From sequence record OZ346158.1: a stretch of 64,000 nt of DNA, one strand, 5' to 3'. Source of the DNA: a phage. The notes beneath the pieces are model-generated. The model was not told the origin of the DNA, searched no databases, and saw only the letters and a list, made by a program, of their open reading frames with translations. The position numbers and the translations under genes are program-made. Below are positions 15,920 to 30,055 of the stretch, piece after piece (the first letter of the stretch is position 1; each line of letters starts with the position of its first letter).

Positions 15920-15939
15920 GAAAGTGCAGGAGATAAAGT

Positions 15940-16185: not shown

Positions 16186-16375
16186 GCTTAAATCTGCATG
16201 GAACATCGCTGTGGGGGATGAGATCCGCATCCCAGGTGGAAAGACCATTATGAAGATATCACGTATCGAGTATGAAGGTGATCGTGTATTTCATATCTTT
16301 GCAGAAGATGGTCGAGAAATTTATATACAGGCAGGCTCTCACATCTATATCAGTAAGAAAGGGGACGACAAATGA
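16178..16375 (+). CDS. hypothetical protein
   Basis: ATG 16178 after aaggaggg. Confidence 0.5.
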   Translation: MFKLKSAWNIAVGDEIRIPGGKTIMKISRIEYEGDRVFHIFAEDGREIYIQAGSHIYISKKGDDK

Positions 16376-16704
16376 CAGAGATCATCGTTTCAACTGCAGG
16401 GTATGTATTCCTGACAATCATTGCGTTGGCTATTCTGGTGGCGGTGTATGGATTTGTTATCCTGCCTATTCTTGAGACATTTAGCTTGTGTCGGTGTTGG
16501 AGAAAAGCTTACGGACCACAACCGTGGAAAGACTGGTTTCATTTGGTGCGTATAGCGTTCTCTTATGCCTATGATCACTCCAGCAGTGCATGCGTAACCG
16601 GGTACCATGCCTACAACTGGAACTGGGAAGGGCTTGGGAGATGGACTGTTACAAAAACTATACCCTTACGGTTGTATAAAGGAAAGAACACACTGGGAGC
16701 CTGA
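16372..16704 (+). CDS. hypothetical membrane protein
   Basis: Hydrophobic segment AGYVFLTIIALAILVAVYGFVILPIL; start overlaps upstream stop. Confidence 0.5.
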   Translation: MTEIIVSTAGYVFLTIIALAILVAVYGFVILPILETFSLCRCWRKAYGPQPWKDWFHLVRIAFSYAYDHSSSACVTGYHAYNWNWEGLGRWTVTKTIPLRLYKGKNTLGA

Positions 16705-16739
16705 TATTTTAAGTTATCAGATTGCCAGAGATCAGGAGG

Positions 16740-17200
16740 ATTTCTAAAATGGATTTCCTCCTTTTGATATTTTACCTACCAGGATATTTTAAAATCCTTA
16801 GAAAATCAGAAAATGGATCGAAAACTAAAATGGATTTTTCAGAGCAGGCACGACGAGATGAACCACTCATCCTATCGTCTGCACCATATTCCAGACCACC
16901 ATTACAGATTTCCCGCACATGCTCACATCCTTCTACTAGAACTTCCCCCACTTACCCTTGACCTTTTATAGTAATAATCCAACCACTACCTTGAAGTTGT
17001 GGCGCAGCTTTCCAAGTACTCGATCTGTTTTTCGTTTCAAAGATTTAATTTTCTGAAAATTTTTCTCGATAAATTTCTCAGTACTCGATCTGTTTTTCGT
17101 TTTCTGAATCGGATTTTCTGGAAATCGTTCCGGCTCTCGACCTGAAATTTTTGGGGACGAAATCGATTTTTCGTTTTCAGAAATGGATTTTTAAAATTTC
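16740..17200. repeat. AT-rich iteron-like direct-repeat region (AAATGGAT and (T)CTCGATCTGTTTTTCGTTT families)
   Basis: AAAATGGAT at about 16747, 16811, 16827, 17192; CAGTACTCGATCTGTTTTTCGTTT exact at 17014 and 17079 with degenerate copies through 17180; no ORF. Confidence 0.6.
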
Positions 17201-17295
17201 TATATGGGAATATTTTAGTGGATACTATTTTATAGGAAATTGTTACGGAGGGTAATTAGCGTGCTAATTAAATTTATTAAATGCGAGGAGTTCTC

Positions 17296-17530
17296 ATTTA
17301 GAATTTTGAATGATAATCATTCTCGTTTGCAGAATAACGGGCAGGCCCGGTGATTGTCTCCCGGCCCCTACTGCCCCGGCTTGTTATTATAGTAACACAC
17401 AGGACAAAGAAAGCAAGAAGTTTTTGCATAAATTTTTAGACGATAATGATAATCGTTCTCATTTCATGCAGCGCCCATCCCCGGTGGTTGTCTCCCCCGT
17501 CACCGGTGCCTGCCGTCCTTTCAATAGGTA
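17296..17530. repeat. duplicated structured GC-rich element (core CCGGTGATTGTCTCCC)
   Basis: Two direct copies (about 17296-17380 and 17440-17520) each with GATAATC..TTCTC..TTT..TGCAG leader and CCGGTG(A/G)TTGTCTCCC core; inverted third copy near 26461. Confidence 0.55.
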
Positions 17531-17706
17531 TATTTTGCCACCTGGCGGGGCCGCTGTCAACACTTTTCAAAAAAAAAATTCTAACCTGATGCGCTGACCG
17601 CTGCAACCTGGCAGGGCCTAACTGACCAGGTAGGAGAGAATGAAGGCTTGCAAACCTGGTGGGCCTATGCTATAGGATAGGTAACAATTGAAGAGGAGGT
17701 ACAAAA

Positions 17707-17883
17707 ATGGAAGGTAATATGATCCCCCTGGAAAATGTAGCTATTAATGACGCTGAGGCTATCGCCCTGGTTGAAAAGGCTATGGCGGGAGCGTTGGAAC
17801 ATAAAGAAGAGTACGAAAAAATGGTGGTTAACCTGGCAGGGGCGGCGGCTGGAGAATTCTACCCAAAAAATAATTTTAACTAA
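17707..17883 (+). CDS. hypothetical small protein (58 aa)
   Basis: ATG after gaagaggagg RBS; below ORF-track cutoff; TTGCAA-17-TATAGG promoter-like upstream. Confidence 0.45.
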   Translation: MEGNMIPLENVAINDAEAIALVEKAMAGALEHKEEYEKMVVNLAGAAAGEFYPKNNFN

Positions 17884-17968
17884 TGGTTGACAGCTCGGAC
17901 AGTTCTTGTTATTCTTATCCTCGCAAGGTGAACAACACCACACCAATTAACAGAGAGGATAAAAAATC

Positions 17969-18166
17969 ATGAACGCCTACGGAATTAAAGTACGTCGCAA
18001 CACTCGCCAGGTGGTCACCAATCAAGTGATTTGCCGGGTGGATGTAACCATCAACAACGGGCAAGGCCTTTATAAATTTCGTCGCGGTCATAGCTATACC
18101 CTGCAACAGCTTAACCGTTGCGCCCTGACAAAAGGTCAGATCAACCACTGGTTTAATAAAAAATAA
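17969..18166 (+). CDS. hypothetical protein
   Basis: 65 aa; RBS agagaggat. Confidence 0.5.
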   Translation: MNAYGIKVRRNTRQVVTNQVICRVDVTINNGQGLYKFRRGHSYTLQQLNRCALTKGQINHWFNKK

Positions 18167-18168
18167 TG

Positions 18169-18197
18169 TTGACATAGGGTCTGACACAAAATACACT
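18169..18197 (+). promoter_or_regulatory. sigma70-like promoter (TTGACA-17-TACACT)
   Basis: Upstream of gene 18230. Confidence 0.5.
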
Positions 18198-18229
18198 GAA
18201 ATCACAAAAGACACTAAGAGGATAAAATC

Positions 18230-18628
18230 ATGAAAACCACTACCTTTAATTTTGATAATGCGGACTTTTCTTTTTCTGATGTCAAGAACTGCCGCCGTGA
18301 TCGTGGATTTTACAAGGCTTATAATCTGGTGGGCCTGGACGATGACAATAATTTGCACGAAGTAGCTGAGATCCGGTATTATGCCGCCGCCAGTGGTAAC
18401 ACTCACTACTGCGTGTTTTGGATTCACGACAACAAGAACAATAAGTACGGTTATACTGGCGGCAAGGCGAGCGGTCACGGTTACGATAAAGCTAACGCAG
18501 CACTTGAGAGCGCATTAAATGCTATGGGGATCACTGCCGACGGCTGGATCTACGAAGAAGAGTTTTTGTCGGCACTTGCTGACCACCTGGGCTATAAAAA
18601 GCACATTGTGACATGCGCCCACGAATAA
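18230..18628 (+). CDS. hypothetical protein
   Basis: 132 aa; RBS aagaggat. Confidence 0.55.
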   Translation: MKTTTFNFDNADFSFSDVKNCRRDRGFYKAYNLVGLDDDNNLHEVAEIRYYAAASGNTHYCVFWIHDNKNNKYGYTGGKASGHGYDKANAALESALNAMGITADGWIYEEEFLSALADHLGYKKHIVTCAHE

Positions 18629-18711
18629 AAATCATTGACACGCTGCAAAATTTAAGTAAACTAGACACAAAAGGCGGGAATGTTTCCCGCCAGCACAAAG
18701 GAAAAAAGATC

Positions 18712-19107
18712 ATGAATAAGAACGTACGCCGCATCATGAACGAACTGGCAAACGATGAAAAAATTATTGACATGCATTTAGTCAACATTTGCCGCCGTTG
18801 TGTAACATATAACAACCGCGCCGCAAAAGCGCGTGAGATGAACGCAAAAGGCACCTTAAAGCCCTTTCAGGTGGTTGTAAAATCTATAACCAGTGCAGCA
18901 GGCCAGGCGCATGACCACAACAACGGGAGCACTAATATTGATCCGTCTTACGTAATGAAACGGATCCGGACTTGCAAGAATAAAGAGCAGGTGTATAATG
19001 TCATAGACTGGTTGGATTCTATGGGCGATGTGGTTTACAATAGGTTTTCTGCAGCTATCGAGATCCAGCTTGACAGGTTGGACGGTAAAGTACTGAAAAC
19101 TTACTAA
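18712..19107 (+). CDS. hypothetical protein
   Basis: ORF track 18613..19107; ATG 18712 after aaaggaaaaaag; upstream TTGACA at about 18635. Confidence 0.5.
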   Translation: MNKNVRRIMNELANDEKIIDMHLVNICRRCVTYNNRAAKAREMNAKGTLKPFQVVVKSITSAAGQAHDHNNGSTNIDPSYVMKRIRTCKNKEQVYNVIDWLDSMGDVVYNRFSAAIEIQLDRLDGKVLKTY

Positions 19108-19155
19108 GATTATTTTTAGATGGCCTTGACTTCAGGGCCATCAATAAAGTAAACT
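19107..19155 (+). repeat. 48-bp intergenic cassette copy 1 (hairpin GATGGCC-TTGACTTCAG-GGCCATC + AATAAAGTAAA)
   Basis: Near-identical sequence at 19737-19788 and 23478-23527, each directly after a stop codon. Confidence 0.7.
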
Positions 19156-19308
19156 AATCCCAGTTAAGCGAAAAAGGAGGCTTGAAGATGAGCACTACAC
19201 GCCAACACACAAAGGTAACGATTATCGTTTGCATCATTGGTTACATCCTGGCGCAAATGTTGATGGGTAGCGCCAATGATTTCGCAAAATTTTTCTTAGA
19301 CTTTTAAT

Positions 19309-19335
19309 TGACAAGCTAACTTAAATCAGTATAAT
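19309..19335 (+). promoter_or_regulatory. sigma70-like promoter (TTGACA-16-TATAAT)
   Basis: Consensus hexamers upstream of gene 19388. Confidence 0.6.
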
Positions 19336-19387
19336 ACTAAGCACATAAACGGGAAAACTTCCCAGAACACCAAAAGGAGAAAACATT

Positions 19388-19738
19388 ATGAATACTTCCA
19401 TCACTATGACCGCCGAAGAAAAAGCCCTGCAGATCGCCGCTCTGAAAAAACAGATTGCAGAACTTGAAGACAAGATCGACAATTTTGAAATCGACGAAGA
19501 CAAGTACGACGATAAATATGATGAATGGTTAGACGAGATCTACGGCGAAATTATGATCGGAAACATTTCTTTTCTTCCGTCGCGTATCCTCAAGGAGCTA
19601 GATCCTATCGCTTACCGCTGCGGATTTAGCGACTACATCGACAGCCTGGATATTGAGGACGATGAAGAATACCAGGAATTACAGACAGAGTTAGAAGAAG
19701 CAAAAGAAGAGCTTGCAGAACTGGAAGAAAACGAGTAA
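19388..19738 (+). CDS. hypothetical acidic coiled-coil protein
   Basis: 116 aa, highly acidic (E/D-rich), RBS aaaggagaaaac. Confidence 0.55.
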   Translation: MNTSITMTAEEKALQIAALKKQIAELEDKIDNFEIDEDKYDDKYDEWLDEIYGEIMIGNISFLPSRILKELDPIAYRCGFSDYIDSLDIEDDEEYQELQTELEEAKEELAELEENE

Positions 19739-19788
19739 GATTATTTTTAGATGGCCTTGACTTCAGGGCCATCAATAAAGTAAACTTT
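19737..19788 (+). repeat. 48-bp intergenic cassette copy 2
   Basis: Identical hairpin plus AATAAAGTAAACT as copy 1. Confidence 0.7.
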
Positions 19789-19827
19789 ATACTGTTAACA
19801 CTGAACTAATGCATAGGAGTTAAAACC

Positions 19828-20073
19828 ATGGCAGCACTAATCACCAAATATTATGCCCCTACCAACACCAAAAGCGCCCGTATCATGGTAAAAGGCTTCG
19901 GACGTAAAAAGGTGTACACCTGGGATTATGCCTTAGACACGGAAGACAACTACACCAACGCGATGACCGATTTTATTAATGATCTGAACACGCGGATCTT
20001 GACAAATTATAAAATTACCGATATTGCCTATATAGGGGAAGGCGGGATCTGTTTTGTCGGTATCGTCAAATAA
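19828..20073 (+). CDS. hypothetical protein
   Basis: 81 aa; RBS ATAGGAGTTAAAACCATGG identical to that of gene 24445. Confidence 0.55.
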   Translation: MAALITKYYAPTNTKSARIMVKGFGRKKVYTWDYALDTEDNYTNAMTDFINDLNTRILTNYKITDIAYIGEGGICFVGIVK

Positions 20074-20148
20074 GCTGTTTTTTCGGTGGTCCTGGTAGCA
20101 GGGCCATCTATAAAGATAGTTTATCAATACAATGAAAGGAGAAAGTAC

Positions 20149-20502
20149 ATGATCAGCGGGGCAAGTTTTATTATTGGCGCTATTGCTACGGCTTTAATTG
20201 TAAACAAGATCCAATCTAAAAACGAAAAAGATAGCAACGCCCTTACAGAATACCCGTTTTGGGTATTCAACGACAATGAAGACTATATTATCAAGTACAA
20301 GAATGAGAAGGGCGACCAGGTAACACCTCGACCGATCCCGGCTTACAAGATGCAAGAAACACTATACCGCCTAAAGGCTGGAGGCGCAAAAATCGTAGAC
20401 TTTTGGGGATACGATCACACAGATCAGGAAGTTATAAAGCGCCGTATCCGGGCTATTCAGGCCAATATTGAAGTTAGCAAGGGGGGAATATATGAAGATT
20501 AA
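20149..20502 (+). CDS. hypothetical membrane protein
   Basis: ATG 20149 after gaaaggagaaag; N-terminal TM helix ISGASFIIGAIATALIV. Confidence 0.5.
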   Translation: MISGASFIIGAIATALIVNKIQSKNEKDSNALTEYPFWVFNDNEDYIIKYKNEKGDQVTPRPIPAYKMQETLYRLKAGGAKIVDFWGYDHTDQEVIKRRIRAIQANIEVSKGGIYED

Positions 20503-20689
20503 TTTTGAGAAGATTGTAAAGCGATCTCATGCTTCCGAAGAGCTGCCGGAACGCCGCCAGCGCAACAATAAACTGAATAAGCCAAAAAGATTTGGGAAGA
20601 TCTGGCGGAATCATTATGATCGCAAATTACCGGGCCTGCTTTTGGAACGTGAACGACAGGCGGAACGATACCGCCACAAAGGCAAATAA
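20492..20689 (+). CDS. hypothetical basic protein
   Basis: ATG 20492 after aagggggg; Arg/Lys-rich. Confidence 0.45.
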   Translation: MKINFEKIVKRSHASEELPERRQRNNKLNKPKRFGKIWRNHYDRKLPGLLLERERQAERYRHKGK

Positions 20690-20695
20690 CAACCA

Positions 20696-20725
20696 ACGCC
20701 CCGCCATTGTGCGGGGCTTTTTATT
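20696..20725 (+). terminator. rho-independent terminator
   Basis: GCCCCGC-CATTGT-GCGGGGC followed by TTTTTATTT. Confidence 0.7.
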
Positions 20726-20871
20726 TCTATCCTACAAATAGCGCCCCTGGTTGGCCCTGTAAGCGCCAAAAAGGCCCCACCTATGCAATCGCCCCCCCTT
20801 TAACCTGAAAACATCGCTTAGGGCCGTTTTATGGCGTTAAAAATATCATTGACAGTGATTTTATTTAAAGC

Positions 20872-20899
20872 TTGACATCTTAAACAGGTTAGCTATACT
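20872..20899 (+). promoter_or_regulatory. sigma70-like promoter (TTGACA-16-TATACT)
   Basis: Upstream of gene 20932; second TTGACA at about 20849. Confidence 0.55.
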
Positions 20900-20931
20900 A
20901 ACCACATCAAAGAGAGAAAGGAGTAAACGCC

Positions 20932-21192
20932 ATGCGTAAATTAAAAAATTTTGATAAAGTTGATGTTGTCCTGAATAATTTTTACTACTGCAACAACAAG
21001 GCCATTTGGTGGCGTGATAGTTCCACCGATAAAGTCAAGGCGCGCTTTCTCCAGGGGCACTGGCAAGGCCGCCCAGTGATTAAAATCATGGGGCAATTGG
21101 TAGCGTTTAAAAATTGCCGCCGTGTTGATGACGTTGAAGAGATCTTGAATATTTTACGCCACAATAATTTAAAAAATAGTGTTGACAAGTAA
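20932..21192 (+). CDS. hypothetical protein
   Basis: 86 aa; RBS aaaggagtaaacgcc. Confidence 0.55.
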   Translation: MRKLKNFDKVDVVLNNFYYCNNKAIWWRDSSTDKVKARFLQGHWQGRPVIKIMGQLVAFKNCRRVDDVEEILNILRHNNLKNSVDK

Positions 21193-21209
21193 ATCTCAAT
21201 AAGTATACT
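21182..21209 (+). promoter_or_regulatory. sigma70-like promoter (TTGACA-16-TATACT)
   Basis: Overlaps 3' end of gene 20932; followed by GGCGGGAAGTTTTCCCGCC hairpin and gene 21267. Confidence 0.55.
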
Positions 21210-21266
21210 TAAGCACACAGGCGGGAAGTTTTCCCGCCACTAACAAAGAAAATAGGAGAAAATATC

Positions 21267-21890
21267 ATGACCACCGTTAACATTACCACAGGTTGCAATT
21301 TATCTTTCGACGTGCTGACCGACGAACAAAAAGAAAAAGCTATTGAAATGGTCCGCGAAAGAGAAGAACACAGCGGAGAGGATTTTTTCGCAGAAAGTGT
21401 AATTGAATATTATAAAGAACAAGTTTTTCCAGAGTACGGCCTTGAAGATACCGATGTACATTGGTCCGGCTTTTGGTGTCAAGGCGATGGCGCGTCAATT
21501 AATGCTGAAAATGTAGACTTAGAGAAATTCTTGCGTAAAGTCAAGGCCCTGACCAAGTTCCGATCAATTCGTCACTTGTTCGGCACAATGCACGATGGCG
21601 AACTATCAGCCAGTGTTGAACGCGACAAGTACAGCCATTACAGCCATGAAAACACTGTAAGCGGATATATTGATACTACCTGGCTAGATCTGACCGCAAA
21701 ACAAGAAAATAAAGTAGAAGATCTGGAAGAGCTGATCACCGAGACGGTACGGGAGCTATCCCGCAAGGTTTATGTAGACCTGGAGGAGGCCTATCTTGAA
21801 CAGTTTACTACCGAAAACCTGATCGGCCTTATTGAAGCCAATGATTGGCGGTTTGATGTGGATGAATATGGAGAAATGAGTTTTTCATAA
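21267..21890 (+). CDS. hypothetical acidic protein
   Basis: 207 aa; RBS ataggagaaaat. Confidence 0.55.
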   Translation: MTTVNITTGCNLSFDVLTDEQKEKAIEMVREREEHSGEDFFAESVIEYYKEQVFPEYGLEDTDVHWSGFWCQGDGASINAENVDLEKFLRKVKALTKFRSIRHLFGTMHDGELSASVERDKYSHYSHENTVSGYIDTTWLDLTAKQENKVEDLEELITETVRELSRKVYVDLEEAYLEQFTTENLIGLIEANDWRFDVDEYGEMSFS

Positions 21891-21981
21891 ATAAAGTGTT
21901 GCAATAATCTAAAAACCTGCTATATTAAAACTTAAGGGGGAGAGATGACTTGCCCCCACACAAAACAAAGAGGAAAACATC

Positions 21982-22362
21982 ATGAAAAACACTACTAAAG
22001 CTATTGACACCGTTATGTTTAACCTGGTTACATTCCGTGAAGATATGAAAGATCTTCCACGTGAAACAGTGTGCGACCATATCGAAAACTATCGCAAACT
22101 AATCAAAGAGTTGCCTTTAAAACGTGACCAGTACGCGGCTAACGCTATGCTTAACGCCATGATCAAGAAAATGATTCAGTGCGATTTGACTTTAGCTTAT
22201 GATTATGCAGGTGGTCGTTTTGCAGTATACAATCAGCCCGTGCCTGGTATGAGCACCACAGAAGAATTGCACGCGTTAAATCTAAAACAAGACGTATGGG
22301 ATAACATGCCCCGCGTGGTGGTGTGGGCAGAAAGCGGAAAGATTTACGGCGATAATTTTTAA
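21982..22362 (+). CDS. hypothetical protein
   Basis: 126 aa; RBS aagaggaaaac; followed by terminator hairpin. Confidence 0.55.
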   Translation: MKNTTKAIDTVMFNLVTFREDMKDLPRETVCDHIENYRKLIKELPLKRDQYAANAMLNAMIKKMIQCDLTLAYDYAGGRFAVYNQPVPGMSTTEELHALNLKQDVWDNMPRVVVWAESGKIYGDNF

Positions 22363-22371
22363 TCAGGTAAC

Positions 22372-22398
22372 AGGCGGCATATTTGCCGCCTTATTGTT
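22372..22398 (+). terminator. rho-independent terminator
   Basis: GGCGGCA-TATT-TGCCGCC followed by TTATTGTT. Confidence 0.6.
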
Positions 22399-22426
22399 AA
22401 ACAGAACTGCAAAAGAGGTACATAGA

Positions 22427-22798
22427 ATGGAATTTATTATTTTGGCTGTAGTAGTTGCCTTGTTCAACGCCTGGATCGCTGGCAAGATAGGTAGATCCGC
22501 TTTTCTATGGTTTGTTATATCTATTTTCCTGGGAGTGGTTGCAACTATTGTATTGGTTATCCTTGCAATTGTTGACAAGGGGAATAATAGAAAGGGTAAA
22601 GTATTTTCAGACCTGTACGACGCTCAAACGTTTGTCAACGCCTATTATAGTGATCTTCCAGTCTCCCTACGTTGCAGCCTTGCACAACAGGTTTTCGATG
22701 AAGCTAAAACCAGAGATCACGCCCATGAGATTTGTTTAACTGAGGCGGATCGCCTATTTGAGAGGAATAGAAAATATGTGGACCAGCCGTTTAAATAA
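22427..22798 (+). CDS. hypothetical membrane protein
   Basis: ATG 22427 after aaagaggta; two predicted TM helices. Confidence 0.5.
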   Translation: MEFIILAVVVALFNAWIAGKIGRSAFLWFVISIFLGVVATIVLVILAIVDKGNNRKGKVFSDLYDAQTFVNAYYSDLPVSLRCSLAQQVFDEAKTRDHAHEICLTEADRLFERNRKYVDQPFK

Positions 22799-22851
22799 TG
22801 CCACGTTAATTAACCCCTTTAGTGAAGATTTGAAGCCAGCCGCCTGGCGGG

Positions 22852-23136
22852 ATGGATTCAATAACGAAAGCTTTATTTTCAGGCCTGATCTTAAGGAATT
22901 TTATAACAATGGATCGAACAACGACAGAGATAATTTTTCTTGTAATGTGCGTGGTGATAATACTCCTGGGGGCCATTGCAAACCACGTCACTGCTAACAG
23001 GAGGAAAGGGGAGACGATGACACCCAAGGATAAGCCCCGTACCGATAAGGCGCGCCGTGTTATGGTATGGCTTGAGATCATCGCCCTTGAAATATTGTTA
23101 GGCGTAGGGATGTATTTTATCGCTGTAAGTAATTGA
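22852..23136 (+). CDS. hypothetical small membrane protein (start uncertain)
   Basis: Hydrophobic segments; best RBS aggaggaaagg precedes internal ATG near 23016. Confidence 0.35.
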   Translation: MDSITKALFSGLILRNFITMDRTTTEIIFLVMCVVIILLGAIANHVTANRRKGETMTPKDKPRTDKARRVMVWLEIIALEILLGVGMYFIAVSN

Positions 23137-23276
23137 TAACGGCCCCGATCCCTGGGGCCTAACTTTTCAAATTTTTTTCTCCCTGAGTGTTGCAATCCGA
23201 TCCAGAATATGGATAATAACAATCAACGGGGAGACACTCCCCACCGCATAGACAAAGTTCCAAAAGGAGAAACAAA

Positions 23277-23477
23277 ATGAGCAACAATATCCGCGTTATT
23301 AACTTCAAAAAAGAAGAAAAAATTGCCGTGCTGATTGACGGTCAAGAAATCTTTAAAGGTGATTATGAAGATCATCAAACGGCGATTAGTATCACTCGCG
23401 TGATTGGTTACCATAATTTTTACCCTCAAGGCGCTGAGGCAGCAGTAAAACGAATTAAAGAGATTGTAGGCCTGTAA
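23277..23477 (+). CDS. hypothetical protein
   Basis: 66 aa; RBS aaaggagaaac; preceded by GGGGAGACACTCCCC hairpin. Confidence 0.55.
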   Translation: MSNNIRVINFKKEEKIAVLIDGQEIFKGDYEDHQTAISITRVIGYHNFYPQGAEAAVKRIKEIVGL

Positions 23478-23527
23478 AATTTATTTTTAGATGGCCTTGA
23501 CTCCAGGGCCATCAATAAAGTAAATTT
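23478..23527 (+). repeat. 48-bp intergenic cassette copy 3
   Basis: GATGGCCTTGACTCCAGGGCCATCAATAAAGTAAAT, one mismatch relative to copies 1 and 2. Confidence 0.7.
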
Positions 23528-23568
23528 AAACCCTGTTAAAATAATCAGTGCAAAAAGGAGTAATGATC

Positions 23569-23868
23569 ATGTTTATCCAGGCTAATAATCTTTATTTCTT
23601 TGATGGTCAGATCGTAGACGGCGTGGAGGTGGAAATCACCGGGTGCCCTGGCGGTCAGGTTATGACTTTTCGGAATAATGCCTTTGATGATTCTCATATC
23701 GTTATGAGAATGGAAGTTAGTAAGCTGGATGACAAGAAAACACTCATTGATTATTCCGTGAAAGATCATCCAGACTACCACATGATCTATGGTGATTTGT
23801 GCATTGTTGACCGTGACAAGGTGGGCGGCATTGTGATCGCTATTGTGAACGATGTTTTCTCAAACTAA
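23569..23868 (+). CDS. hypothetical protein
   Basis: ORF track 23548..23868; ATG 23569 after aaaggag. Confidence 0.5.
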   Translation: MFIQANNLYFFDGQIVDGVEVEITGCPGGQVMTFRNNAFDDSHIVMRMEVSKLDDKKTLIDYSVKDHPDYHMIYGDLCIVDRDKVGGIVIAIVNDVFSN

Positions 23869-23885
23869 TTTCAGCAGGTGATTTT

Positions 23886-24236
23886 ATGAAAGTAAAACTA
23901 TATTACCTTAATGAGCTTAACCCCCTTGCCCAGGTCCGCGCCATGGCTAATACCTTGATTTGTGAGAAATCTGTATATTGTGTTGAGCTTAACTCCATGC
24001 GTGAACGTCTCAAAGGTGGTTACTTTGACATCCATGCTGCAATCAACGGCCTGAATATGGAATTTATCCGCTTACGTAACAGCCGCCAGAATCTGGGAAG
24101 AATGGAACAAGATCCGGCCCACCTTCGTAAGCTGGTTATTGAAAATCATCTAATGTTTAATGCCGATGGTGATTATTACCATTTTCACCGTAAACGCTGG
24201 TACCGTAGCGGCAATATAGGAAAGAATGCAAAATAA
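23886..24236 (+). CDS. hypothetical protein
   Basis: 116 aa; followed by terminator. Confidence 0.5.
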   Translation: MKVKLYYLNELNPLAQVRAMANTLICEKSVYCVELNSMRERLKGGYFDIHAAINGLNMEFIRLRNSRQNLGRMEQDPAHLRKLVIENHLMFNADGDYYHFHRKRWYRSGNIGKNAK

Positions 24237-24271
24237 GGCCCCTGGCAGGGCCTGCAGCGATATAATCACAT

Positions 24272-24306
24272 AAAGGCTATGCGGTTGCATAGCCTTTATT
24301 ATTTTG
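24272..24306 (+). terminator. rho-independent terminator
   Basis: AAAGGCTATGC-GGTT-GCATAGCCTTT followed by ATTATTTT. Confidence 0.7.
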
Positions 24307-24444
24307 GCGTTACAGCGGCCCCCAAGGCGCTTAAAAAAATTTTTAAAGAAGTACTTGCATCAAGTCCTACAATATGGATAATAAAGGGTGTCGGGGGGGC
24401 GGTGAGGCCTCCAATCATTAACCGGATAGATAGGAGTTAAAACC

Positions 24445-24729
24445 ATGGCTATTGTTACCGTTGGCGATGTAGTAGAAATGGAAGCCAAATACTTAAAAGC
24501 TGGTATGCATATCATACGGAATGATCAAGAATTGTTATTAACCATGGTTGAATATAATCCCGGTCAGGATTATCCAAGCATTGACTACTTTTTCCAGTAT
24601 GTTGATGAAGAATTAAAAGAGGATGAGGCTTATCAGGGTGAATTTTGTAATTTCTTTTGCCCTGATGAGGTTGTAAAAGTTATCTATCAACCTGGCGTAC
24701 CTTTCCCGCTGCACGCTATCAACAAATAA
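24445..24729 (+). CDS. hypothetical protein
   Basis: 94 aa; RBS ATAGGAGTTAAAACCATGG. Confidence 0.55.
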   Translation: MAIVTVGDVVEMEAKYLKAGMHIIRNDQELLLTMVEYNPGQDYPSIDYFFQYVDEELKEDEAYQGEFCNFFCPDEVVKVIYQPGVPFPLHAINK

Positions 24730-24784
24730 ACCTGGCGGGGCCGAAAAGGCCCCCAATTATGAAAATAAAGAGAGGCAAATCATC

Positions 24785-25018
24785 ATGATGGAACAAATTA
24801 AACGCGCCGAGGCTATTAATGGCAACGTGATCTATTTTGTCAGCAAAAACGAAAAAGGCGTACCCTATGCGGCGGTAATAGTACAGCCTGACGGCGATTA
24901 TTGGTGTACTGTGTACGGCGCTTATTCTTTTGGGCGTCCAGTGCATGATAAAATTTTGAAAGTAGCGAACCCTACCGGGAAAAATATCACAGCAGAAAAA
25001 TTTTTTGAAAATAGTTGA
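24785..25018 (+). CDS. hypothetical protein
   Basis: 77 aa; RBS aaagagaggcaaatcatc. Confidence 0.55.
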   Translation: MMEQIKRAEAINGNVIYFVSKNEKGVPYAAVIVQPDGDYWCTVYGAYSFGRPVHDKILKVANPTGKNITAEKFFENS

Positions 25019-25042
25019 CATGACCATATAAGACTGTAGTAT
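25015..25042 (+). promoter_or_regulatory. sigma70-like promoter (TTGACA-16-TAGTAT)
   Basis: Upstream of a 59-aa ORF at about 25090..25269. Confidence 0.5.
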
Positions 25043-25779
25043 ATAAATCAAAGGGGCAAGCCCCACCAACCACAAAGAGGATAAAAATCATGGCTATTAT
25101 TGCAAAGACTGAGATCGTAGGCTTGGATTCTATTCTCCTCGCATATGAGGAAGCTATAGAAATGTATGTGGTTTCCTATGGTGAGTATATCCGTGAATAT
25201 AAATCTATTGATCTGGCTTTTGAATGTTATATTCGCCAGGTTAATAAAGCGTACGATGATTATCGTTAAAATAGTTTGAAAACAAACAACCATCTTACAA
25301 AGCATAATACATAAGGCGGTGGAATGGTCCGCCACCTGGAACAAGAAGAGGAAAACAAAATGAAACAGAAATTAATTGATGCGGTGATCCTGGTTATTGC
25401 CCTGGGTATTGGCCTGATTGCAACCATGGCTAATGTGATCTTGTCTTCCAACGGTATCGGGTGAGGTTGGCAAATGATCACTAACAAAACAGGCAAGCGG
25501 AATTTTTACTCAACTTACAGATCGGCAAGCCTGAGATCTGGTATTGCACTAAAACACCACGTGACGAAATGAAAGACTTCACCGCCACGCTGCAACGGGT
25601 AAAGATATCCATCACGCAGAAAAAGGCCTTGATAGTGGTGGAAGGTGAGATCCCTCAAACCGTTGTTATAGTTGAGCGTACAGCATAGTTTAATTTATAC
25701 CGATACCCGAAAATTAACCAACAAAGCATAAACAGGCGGTTACCGCCGCCTTAAACGTAGCAGAAAGAGGATAGACACA

Positions 25780-26064
25780 ATGAAAAAGATGATCGCAGTG
25801 GTTGCCCTGGTTGTTGGACTTAATGCGCCTGTAATGGCTAAAGAGCTGGCAAAAGAGGTTAATCTAACGGATATTCATGCCGTCAATCGAATCGGGGTTA
25901 CTTATCGCTTATGCCTTGCCGCTAAAACTTTTAAGGACGGCACGACAGAGTACTACGGATTCGAAGGTGTCCGGTGCGGTGAACTTGCTCGCGACCTTAA
26001 GGAAGATCCAGACCTGGAGGATCTGCCCATCACCGTAAACGGGAAAACTTACGTAAACCGTTAA
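25780..26064 (+). CDS. hypothetical secreted protein (signal peptide)
   Basis: N-terminus MKKMIAVVALVVGLNAPVMA is signal-peptide-like; RBS aaagaggat. Confidence 0.55.
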   Translation: MKKMIAVVALVVGLNAPVMAKELAKEVNLTDIHAVNRIGVTYRLCLAAKTFKDGTTEYYGFEGVRCGELARDLKEDPDLEDLPITVNGKTYVNR

Positions 26065-26212
26065 CCATGATAAAGATAATCATCACCTTGGCATCGTGGC
26101 GGGATCGCTGGCGCTCTTTCTCCTTATGGTTAGGTATGTGCTGATCGGTATTGTCCTGGTAGTCAGTGATCTATTGGAAACGGTTGGCACCTTGTTTTAA
26201 AGAGCGGTAAAA

Positions 26213-26404
26213 ATGAATATCGAACAAGTTAGAAAGGTATTGGCGGTACTGCGTTATCATAATCATAGAAAGGTCATAGACGATCCTGATTATGTCGATT
26301 CAAGCCTGGAAGGGGATACACTACAAGCCATAAGTAACATGCAAGAATTGCTAAAGCGCATGACAGAGAAAAACCGACCGGACTACATAGGCGAAAAAAT
26401 ATAA
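26213..26404 (+). CDS. hypothetical protein
   Basis: 63-aa ORF. Confidence 0.45.
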   Translation: MNIEQVRKVLAVLRYHNHRKVIDDPDYVDSSLEGDTLQAISNMQELLKRMTEKNRPDYIGEKI

Positions 26405-26615
26405 TCCTTATAAACTACAAAACAGGGCTTGCAATGGTCCTGTTTTTTGTTATACTTGTTTCACGGCAGGCGCCTGGCGACGGGGGAGACAATCACCGGG
26501 TGTGCCTGCTATATAAAAACTATAAAAACCGTTGACATCTGCCAGGTGGTGGGGTAGCATTTATCTCGAAGGGGGCAAAAGCGCCCACACAACAACCGGA
26601 AGAGAGGAAAACGCC

Positions 26616-26888
26616 ATGTTAAGCTGGATTAACCAAGAAGTTGAATCACGTTTCAATGCTATTTGGGATCTCATCGAAAAAGAGGACGGAACATCAAGCC
26701 CTTATCTCAATAATCTTGAATTCCATTTCGTGGAAGCGATGAACGCAGAACATGATCACGAAGGTGGTGCGGATGAATTCGCTAAAGGATATGGCTTCAA
26801 CAATGCCAACGAAATGATCGAGGCGGTTGTACTCCAGGCTGAGGAAGATTATCAATTAAAAACGCTTGAATTCTGCCGCCGTAAGTAA
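26616..26888 (+). CDS. hypothetical protein
   Basis: ORF track 26532..26888; internal ATG after gaagagaggaaaac; upstream TTGACA at about 26532. Confidence 0.5.
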   Translation: MLSWINQEVESRFNAIWDLIEKEDGTSSPYLNNLEFHFVEAMNAEHDHEGGADEFAKGYGFNNANEMIEAVVLQAEEDYQLKTLEFCRRK

Positions 26889-26950
26889 TAAGATAATGAC
26901 ACGGGCCAAAAGGCCCACTAAACAAAAACCACATAAAGAGGAAAAACATC

Positions 26951-27214
26951 ATGAAACGTCTTGATCAGCTCAAATTAGTTCAATATATGGCTTATCGTGT
27001 TCTTGAAGTCCAGAAAGGTAGCAAAAAAGAGGTTTGCGAGAAAGCTTATAAGATCTTCACTCGCAAAAAAGATGATTGGATGTTACGCCAGACCAAAAAA
27101 GCCGATATCTTGGGGTACCTGGAAGAAGAGATCCGGCTTGAAGAGCAAGAAGAGATCCGCCGCAGTGAGGCAGATTATCAGGCAGCTTGGGAAAACTGGA
27201 TGAATAACAAATAA
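26951..27214 (+). CDS. hypothetical protein
   Basis: 87 aa; RBS aaagaggaaaaac; preceded by GGGCCAAAAGGCCC hairpin. Confidence 0.55.
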   Translation: MKRLDQLKLVQYMAYRVLEVQKGSKKEVCEKAYKIFTRKKDDWMLRQTKKADILGYLEEEIRLEEQEEIRRSEADYQAAWENWMNNK

Positions 27215-27280
27215 TACAACAAGTTACATGGTCAGGGGCAATAAAGCCCCTTGATCACATAAAAATTATGCCATCCTTGG

Positions 27281-27309
27281 TTGACAGGGATCGGCAGTTT
27301 TGCTATATT
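27281..27309 (+). promoter_or_regulatory. sigma70-like promoter (TTGACA-17-TATATT)
   Basis: Upstream of gene 27359. Confidence 0.55.
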
Positions 27310-27358
27310 CTTTTTTGAAGGGAAGTTGTAAGAAAATTAACTAAGAGGTAAAAACACC

Positions 27359-27778
27359 ATGAACATTAAATCTAATAATCCGGCATATAGCTTTGATAAC
27401 GCTTTTTGTCACGGTCCGGCGGCGAAAGGATTCGAAATCGATGGTAAACTAGTTATTGTCAATGTTGACGGGGAAGAGGTTGCAGTATATCCGGTGGCAG
27501 ACGTTAAAAGCCGTCTACAATGCCGCATCGATGTTACCGCCTACCAGCTTGATCCGGTCCGGGTAGTTGCCCTGGTCCTGGAAGAAGAAATTAAAGCAAT
27601 GCACCACAGCAACAAGTTTATTGGTGACGCTCAAGATAATATGAAGGTGTGCCGCCATAAAGTTAATGAAGTGCTTAAAGAATATGGCTTTAAAGATCTG
27701 ATGATCAAACGTGAGGAAAAATTCCGCTACCGTAACGACCTGGCAAATCGGATTTTTGAAATATACGAATCATTATAA
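27359..27778 (+). CDS. hypothetical protein
   Basis: 139 aa; RBS aagaggtaaaaac. Confidence 0.55.
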   Translation: MNIKSNNPAYSFDNAFCHGPAAKGFEIDGKLVIVNVDGEEVAVYPVADVKSRLQCRIDVTAYQLDPVRVVALVLEEEIKAMHHSNKFIGDAQDNMKVCRHKVNEVLKEYGFKDLMIKREEKFRYRNDLANRIFEIYESL

Positions 27779-27796
27779 TTTCTTAACTGAATTATC

Positions 27797-27824
27797 AAGG
27801 GGCTTAAAGGCCCCTTTCTTTTTG
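27797..27824 (+). terminator. rho-independent terminator ending the + strand block
   Basis: AGGGGC-TTAAAG-GCCCCT followed by TTCTTTTTG. Confidence 0.7.
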
Positions 27825-28544
27825 TCTGCTCTTCTCCTACCATAAACGGCCCTACCTGGCAAGTGGAATAATTGACTAGCCATCAATCCCACATACTGTA
27901 CAAATATACATGGAAAATAACTATTGCATAATTTTTCATTGTGTGGTAGCAAGTCCATTTTTACCCGTTTTCTCTCCCAAAAGTGCACGTAATGCCGCTA
28001 TTGCACAAATTTTAACCTGATGCACATCTCCAATATCTTGTCAACAACTAAAAATCTTTATAAGTCATACACTTACACAGCATCGAAAGCGTGTTCTACG
28101 CGAAAAATCGAGTATAACTATAGCCGCCAGATCTCAGAATTCACGTACGCACGCCATTCTATAGCCTGCAAAGTATTTATTCCAACCACAGAATAACGGA
28201 ATAGTCAATACCTGCATAAAATAATTATTCGTGTAAACTGCATAACATAAATCAGCTCAGGTGTCAACATTTTTCGTAAACAGTCCGAAATTATCACGAT
28301 GAGTTATCATAAACAGAGAAATCTTTAGTCGTCTAATGTTTACTGTACATTACTATACTGACTGGAATCATTAGATGACTAATACAATAGAACAAATTAA
28401 TAATGTAATTATTTTACCTGTAACAATAAGGCAACTATGCAAACGAATGGCATGGCGCGACGGAGTCGCGACATAATATAAAAGCAGTAACCATCACCCC
28501 CGTGATAGTTTGTCTGCAAACTATTAATCAGATCATAGTTGCCT

Positions 28545-28584
28545 TGTATTTAGTTAATCATGACATAACAAGCAAGGCAACTAT
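28545..28584. repeat. 12-bp perfect inverted repeat ATAGTTGCCTTG / CAAGGCAACTAT with third copy at about 28429
   Basis: Read directly; hairpin or operator-like, at the 3' end of the - strand gene block. Confidence 0.6.
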
Positions 28585-28591
28585 AGATATA

Positions 28592-28849
28592 CTAAACCAT
28601 AGCTTCAAAAGGAGTCATGAACGAATAAACGGCATCATCATCTGCTTCAGGGAATGCTCCCAAAGACTTCATATCTGAACCCTTGACAAATACAAGGTTT
28701 TGATCAAAGGCTTCTTGGGGGTCAATCCGATACATATTTCGTAGAATATCGCTTACCTCCTCATCAAGAGGTGAGTATGCTGTGCACGTTTTTCCGATCA
28801 AGCTTTGAGAATCAGGGTATCCACCTGAAGTTTTAAAATAAACAATCAT
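28592..28849 (-). CDS. hypothetical protein (possible distant member of small paralog family)
   Basis: 85-aa ORF. Confidence 0.45.
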   Translation of the reverse strand: MIVYFKTSGGYPDSQSLIGKTCTAYSPLDEEVSDILRNMYRIDPQEAFDQNLVFVKGSDMKSLGAFPEADDDAVYSFMTPFEAMV

Positions 28850-28940
28850 ATAGTATCACCTCTGGTAAGAGATTGGGATTCCTTTCCCACAAATAATTAC
28901 AAATCTTCCTTATCGAGGAAGTATGCTAATCCAAGCAGGA

Positions 28941-29210
28941 TTATTCCTCTACAATCTCATACACATCAGGAGTTACAATCAATTCTTCTCCGTTACCCGG
29001 TGCAACAAACACCACCAAACCTTCAGGTGTGTGCTTTTTAGCCATCTCGATAACATCTTCTCGCAGAGCTGGCTCCATCAGATCAAAACCTTCACCCAGG
29101 GCATCACGAACCACCTTCATATAGTCCACTGGTTGTGCTTCAACAATCATGCCTTCAACCAGTCCACAGTTTTTGTCTGCCAGCTCAGTTTTGAATAATT
29201 TAATTTTCAT
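28941..29210 (-). CDS. hypothetical protein, MK[VI]K-x-[LF] paralog family member
   Basis: Starts MKIKLF, ends EIVEE; RBS gaggag; family resemblance to 30467, 30711 and 34360 genes. Confidence 0.55.
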   Translation of the reverse strand: MKIKLFKTELADKNCGLVEGMIVEAQPVDYMKVVRDALGEGFDLMEPALREDVIEMAKKHTPEGLVVFVAPGNGEELIVTPDVYEIVEE

Positions 29211-29347
29211 TTAGAGGTCTCCTCAATTATTTGATATTAATAGCCGTAACCTAACACATTAACTACAACTGCGATTGCAAACATAATTTCAAAGCATGCA
29301 ATCTCTACATTTGGGACTAATTTCTTAATCACACCCATTGTAGCACC

Positions 29348-29665
29348 TCATTTTCCAAAGTCAATCTTTACTTTGCCTTTCCCCTTACCTTTCTTTCCAC
29401 CGCATTTAGCCAGCTGACGTGCTGCAACATCTACCATACGGTCAGTTGCCTCGTAAGCATCACTACCTTTAGCCTTGGCAATAACTTCTTTTCCAGAATT
29501 GTCAAAAATGAACGCCATAACTTCCTGGTGATCATTTTCAACTTTTACACTCACACGTGCATAGTTGGCAGAGGGGTGCAAACGCTCCAGTTTAGACATT
29601 TTGTTGGAAATGAAAGACACCATACCTTCAGTGATTTCTACGTTGCCAGTGATTTCAATTTGCAT
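29348..29665 (-). CDS. ribosome hibernation-promoting factor / RaiA (YfiA) family homolog
   Basis: MQIEITGNVEITEGM...KLERL...ARVSVK...D...ARQL parallels bacterial HPF/RaiA (MQLNITG...EITEAL...KLE...KHK) as recalled. Confidence 0.7.
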   Translation of the reverse strand: MQIEITGNVEITEGMVSFISNKMSKLERLHPSANYARVSVKVENDHQEVMAFIFDNSGKEVIAKAKGSDAYEATDRMVDVAARQLAKCGGKKGKGKGKVKIDFGK

Positions 29666-29747
29666 AACGTGTTCCTTTTAAAGAAGAGGGAACCAAACCC
29701 TCTTTGAAAACAATGATACTAAATCTGAAGCGTTGTGTCAACAGTTT

Positions 29748-30038: not shown

Positions 30039-30055
30039 GTTAGTACCCCACTGTT

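Follow-up and report, generated by a model that had tools for sequence, protein, structure and literature searches.

How is a crowded array of about thirty small genes expressed in a large phage, and how do its genes come and go? The question is raised by the block at 17650-27825 of a 64,000-nt stretch of phage DNA (sequence record OZ346158.1; this whole stretch is the window, and its given strand is the + strand). The window phage is a Vequintavirus, i.e. an rV5-like myovirus of E. coli, and the block is 98.3% identical to Escherichia phage JohannBauhin (Bas53), with matches in 209 phage records. It holds about 29 small + strand open reading frames (ORFs), here g1 to g29, between 17707 and 27778; their counterpart is 30 coding sequences (CDS) over the same JohannBauhin stretch. 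A sequence-only reading had counted about 30 small genes, in agreement with this number, and had taken the block for a host-takeover module driven by host RNA polymerase. We consider it probable (about 0.6) that the block is a variable accessory-gene array whose ORFs are linked by copies of a recurrent composite regulatory cassette, similar to the promoter-early stem-loop (PeSL) cassettes of T4-like phages. In order, such a cassette would consist of a stop codon, an A-rich tract, sigma70-type −35 and −10 hexamers, a GC-rich stem-loop, an A/C-rich unstructured leader, the Shine-Dalgarno sequence AAGAGGA and ATG. The evidence found here consists of enrichment, conservation, selection for pairing in the sense strand, insertion/deletion (indel) junctions at cassette motifs and sharing of the cassette with phage phi92.

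Predicted promoters along the array

Promoters were scored as matches to the sigma70 −35 and −10 hexamers out of 12, with a main threshold of at least 10/12. At this threshold 11 + strand sites but no − strand site were found in the block, with 1.7 expected per strand. Nine of the 11 are intergenic and two are intragenic; when conserved sites of 8-9/12 are included, there are 15 intergenic promoters per 29 genes. A-rich tracts such as AAAAATAGTGTTGACA accompany promoters in the block. All five promoters that the sequence-only reading had named, at 19308, 20872, 21182, 25015 and 27281, are present. The sites are listed below, nine of them with the names that the same sites bear in Table S4 of the rV5 paper (Kropinski et al. 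2013, PMC3606486); unless stated otherwise, they are based on score and cross-genome conservation.

17887-17915, +: promoter TTGACA-17-TATTCT, 10/12, rV5 P195A; hexamers retained, spacer replaced in relatives
18169-18197, +: promoter TTGACA-17-TACACT, 10/12, rV5 P195
18635-18662, +: promoter TTGACA-16-TAAACT, 10/12, rV5 P194
19308-19335, +: promoter TTGACA-16-TATAAT, 12/12, rV5 P192
20872-20899, +: promoter TTGACA-16-TATACT, 11/12, rV5 P186
21182-21209, +: promoter TTGACA-16-TATACT, 11/12, rV5 P185
21899-21926, +: promoter TTGCAA-16-TATATT, 9/12; hexamers invariant
23190-23217, +: promoter TTGCAA-16-GATAAT, 9/12
24355-24382, +: promoter-like TTGCAT-16-GATAAT, 8/12; hexamers invariant in 12 genomes
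25015-25042, +: promoter TTGACA-16-TAGTAT, 10/12, rV5 P174
26532-26560, +: promoter TTGACA-17-TAGCAT, 10/12, rV5 P168
27281-27309, +: promoter TTGACA-17-TATATT, 11/12, with TG, rV5 P164

For conservation, the block was aligned from 12 Vequintavirus genomes with 85-99% identity. Variable columns make up 4/90 in the −35 hexamers and 9/89 in the −10 hexamers as compared to 73/249 in the promoter spacers, 42% at third codon positions and 30% in other intergenic DNA. Hexamers that are near-invariant while the spacers between them vary or get replaced are a signature of real promoters. The block sites look like real promoters of the host (sigma70) RNA polymerase, an activity that we infer from consensus and conservation. 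As a prediction this part is already known, because Table S4 of rV5 carries nine of the block promoters, the Gotham record annotates 13 predicted promoters across the block, and the paper on CB7, of a sister genus, describes this promoter type, including an UP-like tract, as concentrated in a region of short ORFs that it labels 'likely early'. Buttimer et al. 2020 (PMC7344957) give AAAA-N3-4-TGTTGAC-N17-19-TATAAT as the Certrevirus 'early' promoter and report, for this sister genus, that the phage family lacks an RNA polymerase of its own. The putative late motif of rV5, TGGTAAAATA, has only two one-mismatch matches on the + strand of the block, which is uninformative on timing.

Promoter enrichment holds on the coding strand throughout the window and is not peculiar to the block. 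Specifically, 8 sites were found and 1.6 expected in 1-11900 (+), 7 and 1.0 in 11900-17650 (+), and 24 and 4.8 in 30400-62000 (−); in rV5, sigma70 sites are likewise present genome-wide (PMC3606486). Because equally good sigma70 sites precede replication and other genes, the promoter type does not single the block out as early. The sequence-only reading is supported in that the promoters look like conserved host-polymerase promoters of sigma70 type, and falls short in that this type is common window-wide.

The same promoters bear on a different view of the block, namely that it is a mixed collection of 'moron-like' genes with accessory or anti-defence roles, transcribed as long as sigma70 polymerase is available, or in the middle phase, and without a role in host shut-off. 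Apart from the comparable sites elsewhere in the window and in rV5, this view is favoured by the fact that all products of the block are without assigned function and by gene content that varies between close relatives, which indicates that the genes are dispensable. We nevertheless find it doubtful. Modules of dense small genes with strong host-type promoters and ribosome-binding sites occur in SPO1 (terminal redundancy), T5 (pre-early) and T4 (early). The block is a similar dense array with many host-type promoters of its own and strong ribosome-binding sites; unlike the SPO1 module it does not lie inside a terminal repeat, and no homology to the three modules was found beyond one T7 gp1.1-family ORF. 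By analogy with T4, T5 and SPO1, small-ORF arrays with consensus sigma70 and UP promoters are early, and we know of no studied virulent phage using the host polymerase in which they are not. The T7 gp1.1-family ORF, g9, belongs to a family from the T7 early region. The arrays of RB49 provide the same analogy (PMC2839356), the CB7 authors hold the same 'likely early' view, and the short-ORF regions were inferred to be 'likely early' in the rV5 and Certrevirus papers (PMC3606486, PMC7344957). If the block is a cassette-built array, the host sigma70 RNA polymerase would start at about 15 points along it, and the timing would probably be early.

Hairpins in the leaders

The block-specific feature is the hairpin, not the promoter. 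The 2.3 kb of intergenic DNA in the block contains 20 GC hairpins as compared to 2.6 ± 1.6 in dinucleotide shuffles (maximum 7 of 200), while coding DNA shows no enrichment (13 vs 9.8 expected). There are 39 strong GC hairpins in the 64-kb window and 21 of them lie within 18-28 kb; outside the block a GC hairpin is found within 45 nt at 3/40 coding-strand promoter-like sites of the window. The GC hairpins that had been noticed in leaders are thus present and far in excess. A strict composite, i.e. a promoter with a GC hairpin 5-14 nt downstream, occurs 6 times vs 0.25 in shuffles, and these six are five of the seven class A promoters described below and one weak site at 27187. AT-rich phage DNA can yield promoter-like and hairpin-like strings by chance, and at a loose threshold of 9/12 shuffles still give 33.5 sites in 14 kb. 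A chance origin of the block's pattern is nevertheless refuted by the 11:0 strand bias, the 6-fold promoter excess at 10/12 or better, the 8-fold excess of intergenic hairpins and the conservation of hexamers and stems across genomes.

The hairpins can be divided into four classes. In class A the hairpin starts 9-10 nt past the −10 hexamer, as seen at seven promoters (g4, g11, g12, g16, g19, g21 and g27); the g6 promoter has a weak hairpin 16 nt past −10. When RNA is folded from the predicted start (7 nt past −10), class A leaders have 3-5 unpaired 5' nt, the hairpin at about +4 to +6, A/C-rich sequence after it and a mostly unpaired Shine-Dalgarno sequence. Class B is the 51-nt repeat D1, which occurs in four copies and forms a 10-bp stem around the −35 box TTGACN; across genomes it varies in the loop only, including the last base of the −35 hexamer. 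Class C comprises six hairpins with T-runs that are ordinary terminators (20698, 22372, 23141, 24270, 26419 and 27797) and split the array into about 7 units. The remaining hairpins, class D, follow a stop codon and have neither T-run nor recognisable promoter. Among the stems, GGCGGGAA-N3-TTCCCGCC is found at 18673-18691 and 21220-21238, and the GGGG(C)...(G)CCCC type at 25053-25064, 21936-21957, 23228-23242 and other places. Leader and D1 hairpins are followed by A/C-rich sequence and no U-tract, and do not qualify as intrinsic terminators.

Downstream of the hairpins the ribosome-binding motif AAGAGGA(A/T)AA-N-ATG recurs, with the Shine-Dalgarno AAGAGGA 7-8 nt before ATG; the AAGAGGAAAAC-ATC-ATG families of such sites correspond to repeats D3, D7 and D9. 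The sequence-only reading had pointed out this recurrent motif and also a 19-nt context common to the genes at 19828 and 24445. Both observations are correct, and the 19-mer ATAGGAGTTAAAACCATGG is present in exactly two identical copies, 19813-19831 and 24430-24448, with 0.04 expected. The hairpins and leader elements are the following:

18673-18691, +: leader hairpin GGCGGGAATGTTTCCCGCC, 10 nt past −10 (about +5); variants refold, loop flipped in one relative; cassette 78% similar to a phi92 cassette
19105-19155, +: D1 copy 1, 10-bp-stem hairpin 19119-19142 around −35 TTGACT, then TAAACT (9/12)
19352-19364, +: weak leader hairpin GGGAAAACTTCCC (folding, variants)
19736-19786, +: D1 copy 2, hairpin 19750-19773 and TTGACT-18-TAAACT; 51/51 identical to copy 1
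19813-19831, +: ribosome-binding context ATAGGAGTTAAAACCATGG, copy 1 (g7); exact repeat
20071-20121, +: D1-variant repeat, hairpin 20085-20108; its three changed stem positions still pair, two by G.U wobble and one by a restored Watson-Crick pair
20698-20717, +: intrinsic terminator, 7 GC pairs and TTTTTATTT; loop-flip variant in 2 relatives
21220-21238, +: leader hairpin GGCGGGAAGTTTTCCCGCC, 10 nt past −10; loop-flipped form in most relatives
21936-21957, +: leader hairpin GGGGGAGAGATGACTTGCCCCC, 9 nt past −10
22372-22391, +: terminator-like hairpin, rV5 t184; invariant in 12 genomes
23141-23159, +: terminator-like hairpin, rV5 t181; alternative stems GGCCCC/GGGGCC and GCCCCC/GGGGGC
23228-23242, +: leader hairpin GGGGAGACACTCCCC, 10 nt past −10
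23476-23526, +: D1 copy 3, hairpin 23490-23513 and TTGACT-18-TAAATT (repeat)
24236-24253, +: hairpin AGGCCCCTGGCAGGGCCT at the g18 stop (folding, variants)
24270-24299, +: terminator with 13-bp stem, rV5 t177 within it; T-A / T.G / C-G series at 24278/24291
24395-24412, +: leader hairpin (g19); GGAGG/CCTCC and GGGGG/CCCCC alternatives in relatives
24430-24448, +: ribosome-binding context ATAGGAGTTAAAACCATGG, copy 2 (g19); exact repeat
24737-24753, +: hairpin GGGGCCGAAAAGGCCCC between g19 and g20; no promoter, no T-run
25053-25064, +: leader hairpin GGGGCAAGCCCC, 10 nt past −10
25315-25336, +: g22 leader hairpin; cassette 80% similar to a phi92 cassette
25346-25362, +: g22 ribosome-binding site and start; insertion hot spot
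25734-25751, +: g24 leader hairpin (folding, variants)
26419-26446, +: terminator, 11-bp stem and TTTTTTGTT (T-run)
26571-26586, +: leader hairpin GGGGGCAAAAGCGCCC, 10 nt past −10
26903-26916, +: g28 leader hairpin GGGCCAAAAGGCCC (folding, variants)
26928-26953, +: g28 leader and ribosome-binding site CCACATAAAGAGGAAAAACATCATG; insertion site in Gotham
27229-27257, +: hairpin after g28, core GGGGCAATAAAGCCCC; left edge of the g29 cassette
27797-27816, +: terminator, rV5 t164, array end; right edge of the g29 cassette

Conservation of the hairpins was judged by refolding of variants, since indels weaken column-wise covariation. Variable columns make up 17% of the stems and 64% of the loops, counts in which (as in those of covariation) the hairpin 25053-25064 is mis-registered, and nearly every hairpin variant among the 12 genomes refolds. 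Examples of compensated or alternative stems are the T-A / T.G / C-G series at 24278/24291, the exchange of GGAGG/CCTCC for GGGGG/CCCCC at 24397/24410 in the 24395 hairpin, and GGCCCC vs GCCCCC at 23141-59. Where the window has a Watson-Crick pair, relatives have a G.T variant at 13 pairs and A.C at 3 (p=0.02); without the Watson-Crick restriction the numbers are 16 and 3. Stem changes favour G.U, a pair that forms only in the + strand RNA, and it is therefore in the sense transcript that the structure is under selection. The bias rules out that the leader hairpins serve as − strand terminators, and equally that they are selected as palindromes of duplex DNA. Four hairpins (18673, 20698, 21220 and 24270) appear in some genomes as the exact reverse complement, with the loop flipped and the stem unchanged. 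Such flips are typical of inverted repeats extruding in replication and suggest template switching at these places.

Could the hairpins simply be terminators or attenuators that stop or damp read-through from upstream promoters, and do nothing for the 5' end of the mRNA that follows? T-runs do follow six of them, of which three are the rV5 terminators t184, t181 and t164, with t177 lying inside 24270-24299 (PMC3606486). Moreover, the EdH4 annotation lists leader hairpins of the 18673 and 25053 types as terminators, termination at a PeSL stem-loop was seen in a lacZ assay (PMC2839356), and selection for pairing in sense RNA is equally compatible with terminators. As a complete account this seems unlikely to us. 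After the leader and D1 hairpins comes A/C-rich sequence instead of U-tracts, hairpins placed 9-10 nt past −10 would, if efficient, abort transcripts of their own promoter at about +25, and the tight coupling to −10 (9-10 nt here, mode 10 in phi92) rather than to the upstream stop codon is unexpected for a terminator. For these reasons a 5'-protective role is favoured over pure termination. Attenuation of read-through remains a live rival, and one compatible with 5' protection.

A further alternative is that the hairpins are sites for a phage regulator, either DNA operators, as the D1 palindrome over −35 might suggest, or antiterminator RNA sites of nut/boxB type. D1 is indeed a 24-nt near-palindrome centred on −35, the GGCGGGAA..TTCCCGCC stem recurs in the window phage and in phi92, and there are downstream terminators for an antiterminator to override. 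We regard this as very improbable, since loops are the most variable class of columns and stems differ wholly between cassettes (GGCGGGAA, GGGGC, GGGCC, GGGGAG), while D1 and its variant keep pairing through G.U wobbles that are mismatches in duplex DNA. A scan of 16-31 kb against Rfam gave no family match and one sub-threshold chance hit only. As the main explanation, operators or nut-like sites were rejected because of the hypervariable loops.

The preferred cassette model assigns the hairpins as follows. The six with T-runs would act as terminators or attenuators and cut the array into about 7 units, and the others would enter the sense RNA, the main class at +4 to +6 of the predicted mRNA. 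There they would most likely be 5'-proximal obstacles slowing 5'-end-dependent decay (RppH, RNase E), and would also insulate the ribosome-binding site structurally from upstream RNA. E. coli mRNAs are known to be stabilised by stem-loops near the 5' end, which also hinder scanning by RNase E (PMC3997798 refs 92-95; PMC9943677). Like the ompA, papA and T7 gene 10 leaders, the block leaders combine a hairpin near the mRNA 5' end with an unstructured leader and a strong ribosome-binding site; unlike in those leaders, the function of the block hairpin is deduced from position only.

Proposed recombination at the cassettes and relation to other phages

Eight spots of the block differ in gene content between the 12 genomes. 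Seven indel junctions were inspected and four of them are bounded by directly repeated cassette motifs. At 20849, just upstream of promoter 20872, two TTGACA boxes bound a 548-bp insertion in MiataMamis. At 25352 the repeats are AGAAGAG-N-TAAACACCATGAAA ribosome-binding-site/start sequences, and relatives have 1-2 extra genes there. Leader repeats CCACA-Y-AAAGAGG flank a 295-bp extra gene of Gotham at 26941, and the g29 cassette (27222-27791), which is absent from Gotham and EdH4, is bounded by two GGGGC..GCCCC hairpins. The two 100% identical 51-nt D1 copies flank g5-g6. Divergence is also higher in the block than in the replication module (identity mode 90-95% vs 95-99%), and the block is more mosaic, with pieces common to Phapecoctavirus, Justusliebigvirus and jumbo phages. 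It has the appearance of a recombination-prone variable accessory-gene region. Unrelated ORFs have these short motifs (−35 box, hairpin and leader/ribosome-binding site) in common between them, so that recombination could act on the motifs to insert, delete and swap ORFs, as has been suggested for the PeSL cassettes of T4-like phages.

PeSL cassettes have been described in the T4-like phages RB49/phi1, PST and nt-1 (Arbiol et al. 2010, PMC2839356; Comeau et al. 2014, PMC4122927). From stop codon to start codon they combine an AT-rich tract, a sigma70 promoter, a GGGG..CCCC stem-loop, which can take any of five positions, and a Shine-Dalgarno sequence. They cluster among ORFans, and indels arise by recombination at them (PMC2839356); promoter, terminator and mini-circle activities have been demonstrated (PMC2839356, PMC4122927). 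The block resembles them feature by feature. It has 15 intergenic sigma70 promoters, nine of them at 10/12 or better, and A-rich tracts; the stem-loop position varies (D1 over −35, seven hairpins 9-10 nt past −10, others after the stop codon); the cassettes are concentrated among small ORFans of a variable region; and indel junctions lie in cassette motifs, in four cases of seven and not in the other three. This fit suggests that the block is a PeSL-like variable region. There are two differences, namely that the block sits in a Vequintavirinae genome, an unrelated myovirus lineage and not a T4-like one (Straboviridae), and that in its dominant class the hairpin falls within the predicted transcript, at a constant distance of 9-10 nt from −10. 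Because the genome is a Vequintavirus, the block is likened to PeSLs by how it would work and not by descent.

The same design is present in phi92, a Justusliebigvirus of the Stephanstirmvirinae and thus of another subfamily than the window phage. The small-gene region of phi92 near its g12 homologue has 11-12 promoter-hairpin composites in 7 kb, with the layout TTGACA-N16-17-TAnnnT, about 10 nt ending in CACATAG, hairpin, A-rich leader and Shine-Dalgarno. The hairpins are of the types GGCGGGAA..TTCCCGCC or GGGCGGCAATAGTGCCGC, and the mode of the gap between −10 and hairpin is 10. The window segments 18654-18716 and 25313-25363 are 78-80% similar to phi92 cassettes, while the flanking ORFs are unrelated. 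MiataMamis (11694-11981 of locus L004) and phi92 (12050-12334 of L022) are 92% identical over 288 nt, in a match that begins at the cassette stop codon and −35 and extends into the ORF (phi92 gp244). One promoter-hairpin-ORF unit seems to have been transferred horizontally not long ago. That a portable cassette of sigma70 promoter, 5' hairpin, leader and ribosome-binding site is common to Vequintavirinae and the phi92 group, stabilises and insulates transcripts, and moves ORFans within and between these phages is a tentative proposal, to which we give slightly less than an even chance. If it is true, this would be an independent, non-T4 instance of PeSL-type modular shuffling, with the MiataMamis/phi92 unit as a recent example.

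Several points weigh against the array being built of PeSL-like cassettes. Transcription starts, timing and RNA half-lives are predictions throughout, and promoter activity and hairpin role have likewise been derived from sequence. The roughly 4 unpaired 5' nt might still let RppH act, which would make protection partial; 3-5 unpaired 5' nt is reportedly the upper limit for protection according to work of Emory et al. from 1992. The cassette is not uniform, since four cassettes have a promoter without a hairpin (g2, g3, g10, g29) and several have a hairpin without a recognisable promoter (g13, g20, g24, g28). Column-wise covariation amounts to only 5 pairs, affected by indels, in 12 genomes of 85-99% identity, and three of the seven indel junctions show no cassette motif. 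Finally, attenuation could be the main role of the hairpins, considering the terminator activity of PeSL stem-loops and the EdH4 annotation.

In the literature searched we found no Vequintavirus transcriptomes and no description of PeSLs in rV5-like phages. The rV5 and Certrevirus papers cover promoters and canonical terminators, and do not include U-less leader hairpins, fixed spacing, D1 or cassette recombination. In the same literature we did not find the fixed promoter-hairpin spacing, hairpin selection in the sense strand, D1, cassette-bounded indels or sharing with phi92 described for rV5-like phages. The sequence-only reading is partly supported overall; it had missed the PeSL-like hairpins selected in sense RNA, the six ordinary terminators and the recombination-prone character of the block. 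If the cassette reading holds, PeSL-type shuffling would be a general route by which large virulent phages gain and express small accessory genes, and the cassette a compact conserved expression unit for payload genes in rV5-like therapeutic phages. The 29 or so ORFs are a delimited set in which host-takeover or anti-defence functions can be sought. For the moment the gain is modest, because the promoter content is already published and any early timing or takeover function is putative.

Genes of the array and surrounding DNA

All 29 products fall in PHROGs without assigned function, and the 30 JohannBauhin CDS are annotated as 'hypothetical' throughout except for one 'putative holin'. Pfam gave a curated family match above the gathering threshold for g9 only (PF08200), a family itself of unknown function. 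Apart from PF08200, searches of the products in Pfam, PHROG and PDB yielded no functional assignment, and no relatives of solved structure (PDB) were found for the three larger products searched; these results say nothing for or against host takeover. Seven products have a transmembrane (TM)-like or signal-like hydrophobic segment in a hydropathy scan, which is a crude method; small membrane or secreted products had been anticipated. An IMG/VR search with g11 gave 2 close loci only and six distant homologues in unrelated high-GC contigs, which provided no covariation data because the cassette is absent from these contigs.

17707-17883, +: g1, 58 aa; ORF with GAGGAGG ribosome-binding site, phrog_21957 (unknown function)
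17969-18166, +: g2, 65 aa, basic; phrog_7119
18230-18628, +: g3, 132 aa; PHROG match, no PDB or Pfam relative
18712-19107, +: g4, 131 aa; ORF, PHROG
19188-19307, +: g5, 39 aa, one TM-like segment; PHROG, hydropathy
19388-19738, +: g6, 116 aa, very acidic; ORF, PHROG
19828-20073, +: g7, 81 aa; ORF, PHROG
20149-20502, +: g8, 117 aa, TM-like segment at N-terminus; PHROG, hydropathy
20492-20689, +: g9, 65 aa, T7 gene 1.1 family; PF08200 41.2 bits (cut-off 21), E 2e-10
20932-21192, +: g10, 86 aa; ORF, PHROG
21267-21890, +: g11, 207 aa, acidic; PHROG, distant homologues in unrelated high-GC viral contigs without cassette
21982-22362, +: g12, 126 aa; matches phi92 gp227 (phi92 record: similar to rV5 gp179)
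22427-22798, +: g13, 123 aa, two TM-like segments; 'putative holin' in JohannBauhin, hydropathy
22776-22997, +: g14, 73 aa; PHROG
23017-23137, +: g15, 39 aa, TM-like; PHROG, hydropathy
23277-23477, +: g16, 66 aa; PHROG
23569-23868, +: g17, 99 aa; PHROG
23886-24236, +: g18, 116 aa; PHROG, absent from Gotham and navn
24445-24729, +: g19, 94 aa; PHROG
24785-25018, +: g20, 77 aa; PHROG
25090-25269, +: g21, 59 aa; PHROG
25360-25464, +: g22, 34 aa, TM-like; PHROG, hydropathy
25474-25688, +: g23, frameshifted in the window; ORFs 25474-25572 and 25569-25688, the C-terminal one matching phrog_5988 positions 34-72
25780-26064, +: g24, 94 aa, N-terminus signal-peptide-like; ORF, PHROG, hydropathy
26067-26200, +: g25, small hydrophobic ORF, frame disrupted (early stop in ATG frame); absent from MiataMamis and JLBYU08
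26213-26404, +: g26, 63 aa; PHROG
26616-26888, +: g27, 90 aa; PHROG
26951-27214, +: g28, 87 aa; PHROG
27359-27778, +: g29, 139 aa; PHROG, absent from Gotham and EdH4

Genes g23 and g25 are intact in relatives and frame-disrupted in the window, where they are either pseudogenes or sequencing errors.

The block is the distal end of a long + strand array that opens with helicase, methyltransferases, primase and DNA polymerase, and it corresponds to rV5 genes numbered roughly 196 to 164. Its downstream limit is the terminator at 27797, after which a gap without coding DNA (from 27826) extends for about 770 nt in the window; in the Gotham and EdH4 records the array ends approximately 1-1.5 kb from the genome terminus. 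Directly upstream of the array lie about 0.9 kb (16770-17650) of AT-rich, repeat-rich DNA with low coding potential, in which tiny ORFs are annotated in JohannBauhin. This segment contains three tandem units of approximately 65-74 nt (17006-17191), scattered AAAATGGAT(T/C) motifs and two direct copies of GATAAT..CCCGGTG(A/G)TTGTCTCCC (17318-17362 and 17446-17504), and could be an origin or a regulatory region. The motif CCCGGTGATTGTCTCCC is found in + orientation at 17334-17362 and 17462-17504 and inverted at 26476-26518, 9 kb off, in the spacer upstream of the 26532 promoter; the arms are 77-86% complementary and the sites roughly bracket most of the array. CCTGGCRGGGCC has 6 copies at one mismatch or less vs 0.9 expected, at 17541, 17607, 17832, 24241 and 24731 (+) and 27848 (−). 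All of them lie inside or adjoin the block. The motif includes a CCWGG (Dcm) site; a Dcm-like methyltransferase is encoded by the phage.

On the opposite array, the − strand at 29741-29713 has an 11/12 promoter, TTGACA-17-TATCAT; the hairpin AAGAGGGTTTGGTTCCCTCTT begins 8 nt after it and precedes AGGAACACGTTATG. The layout is that of the block's cassettes and may serve a small gene. At 28595/28596 the window lacks 6.44 kb that is present in JohannBauhin (about 91820-98259 of the record) and in every other relative checked. The absent segment holds the rest of the 'non-coding' region, the homologue of the 459-bp direct terminal repeat of Gotham and 17 small − strand genes, and the junction cuts into the bas53_0148 homologue 9 nt from its 3' end. 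Either the phage is a deletion variant, of natural or laboratory origin, or the assembly has collapsed here. No place was found on the window for the Gotham terminal repeat, because its homologue sits in the absent 6.44 kb. The best public match changes by segment, from APECc02 and WalterGehring (97%) at 1-10176 to JohannBauhin (98%) at 17650-27825 and rV5_ev168 (99.4%) at 28400-36000, and the window phage is therefore a mosaic of known Vequintavirus lineages.

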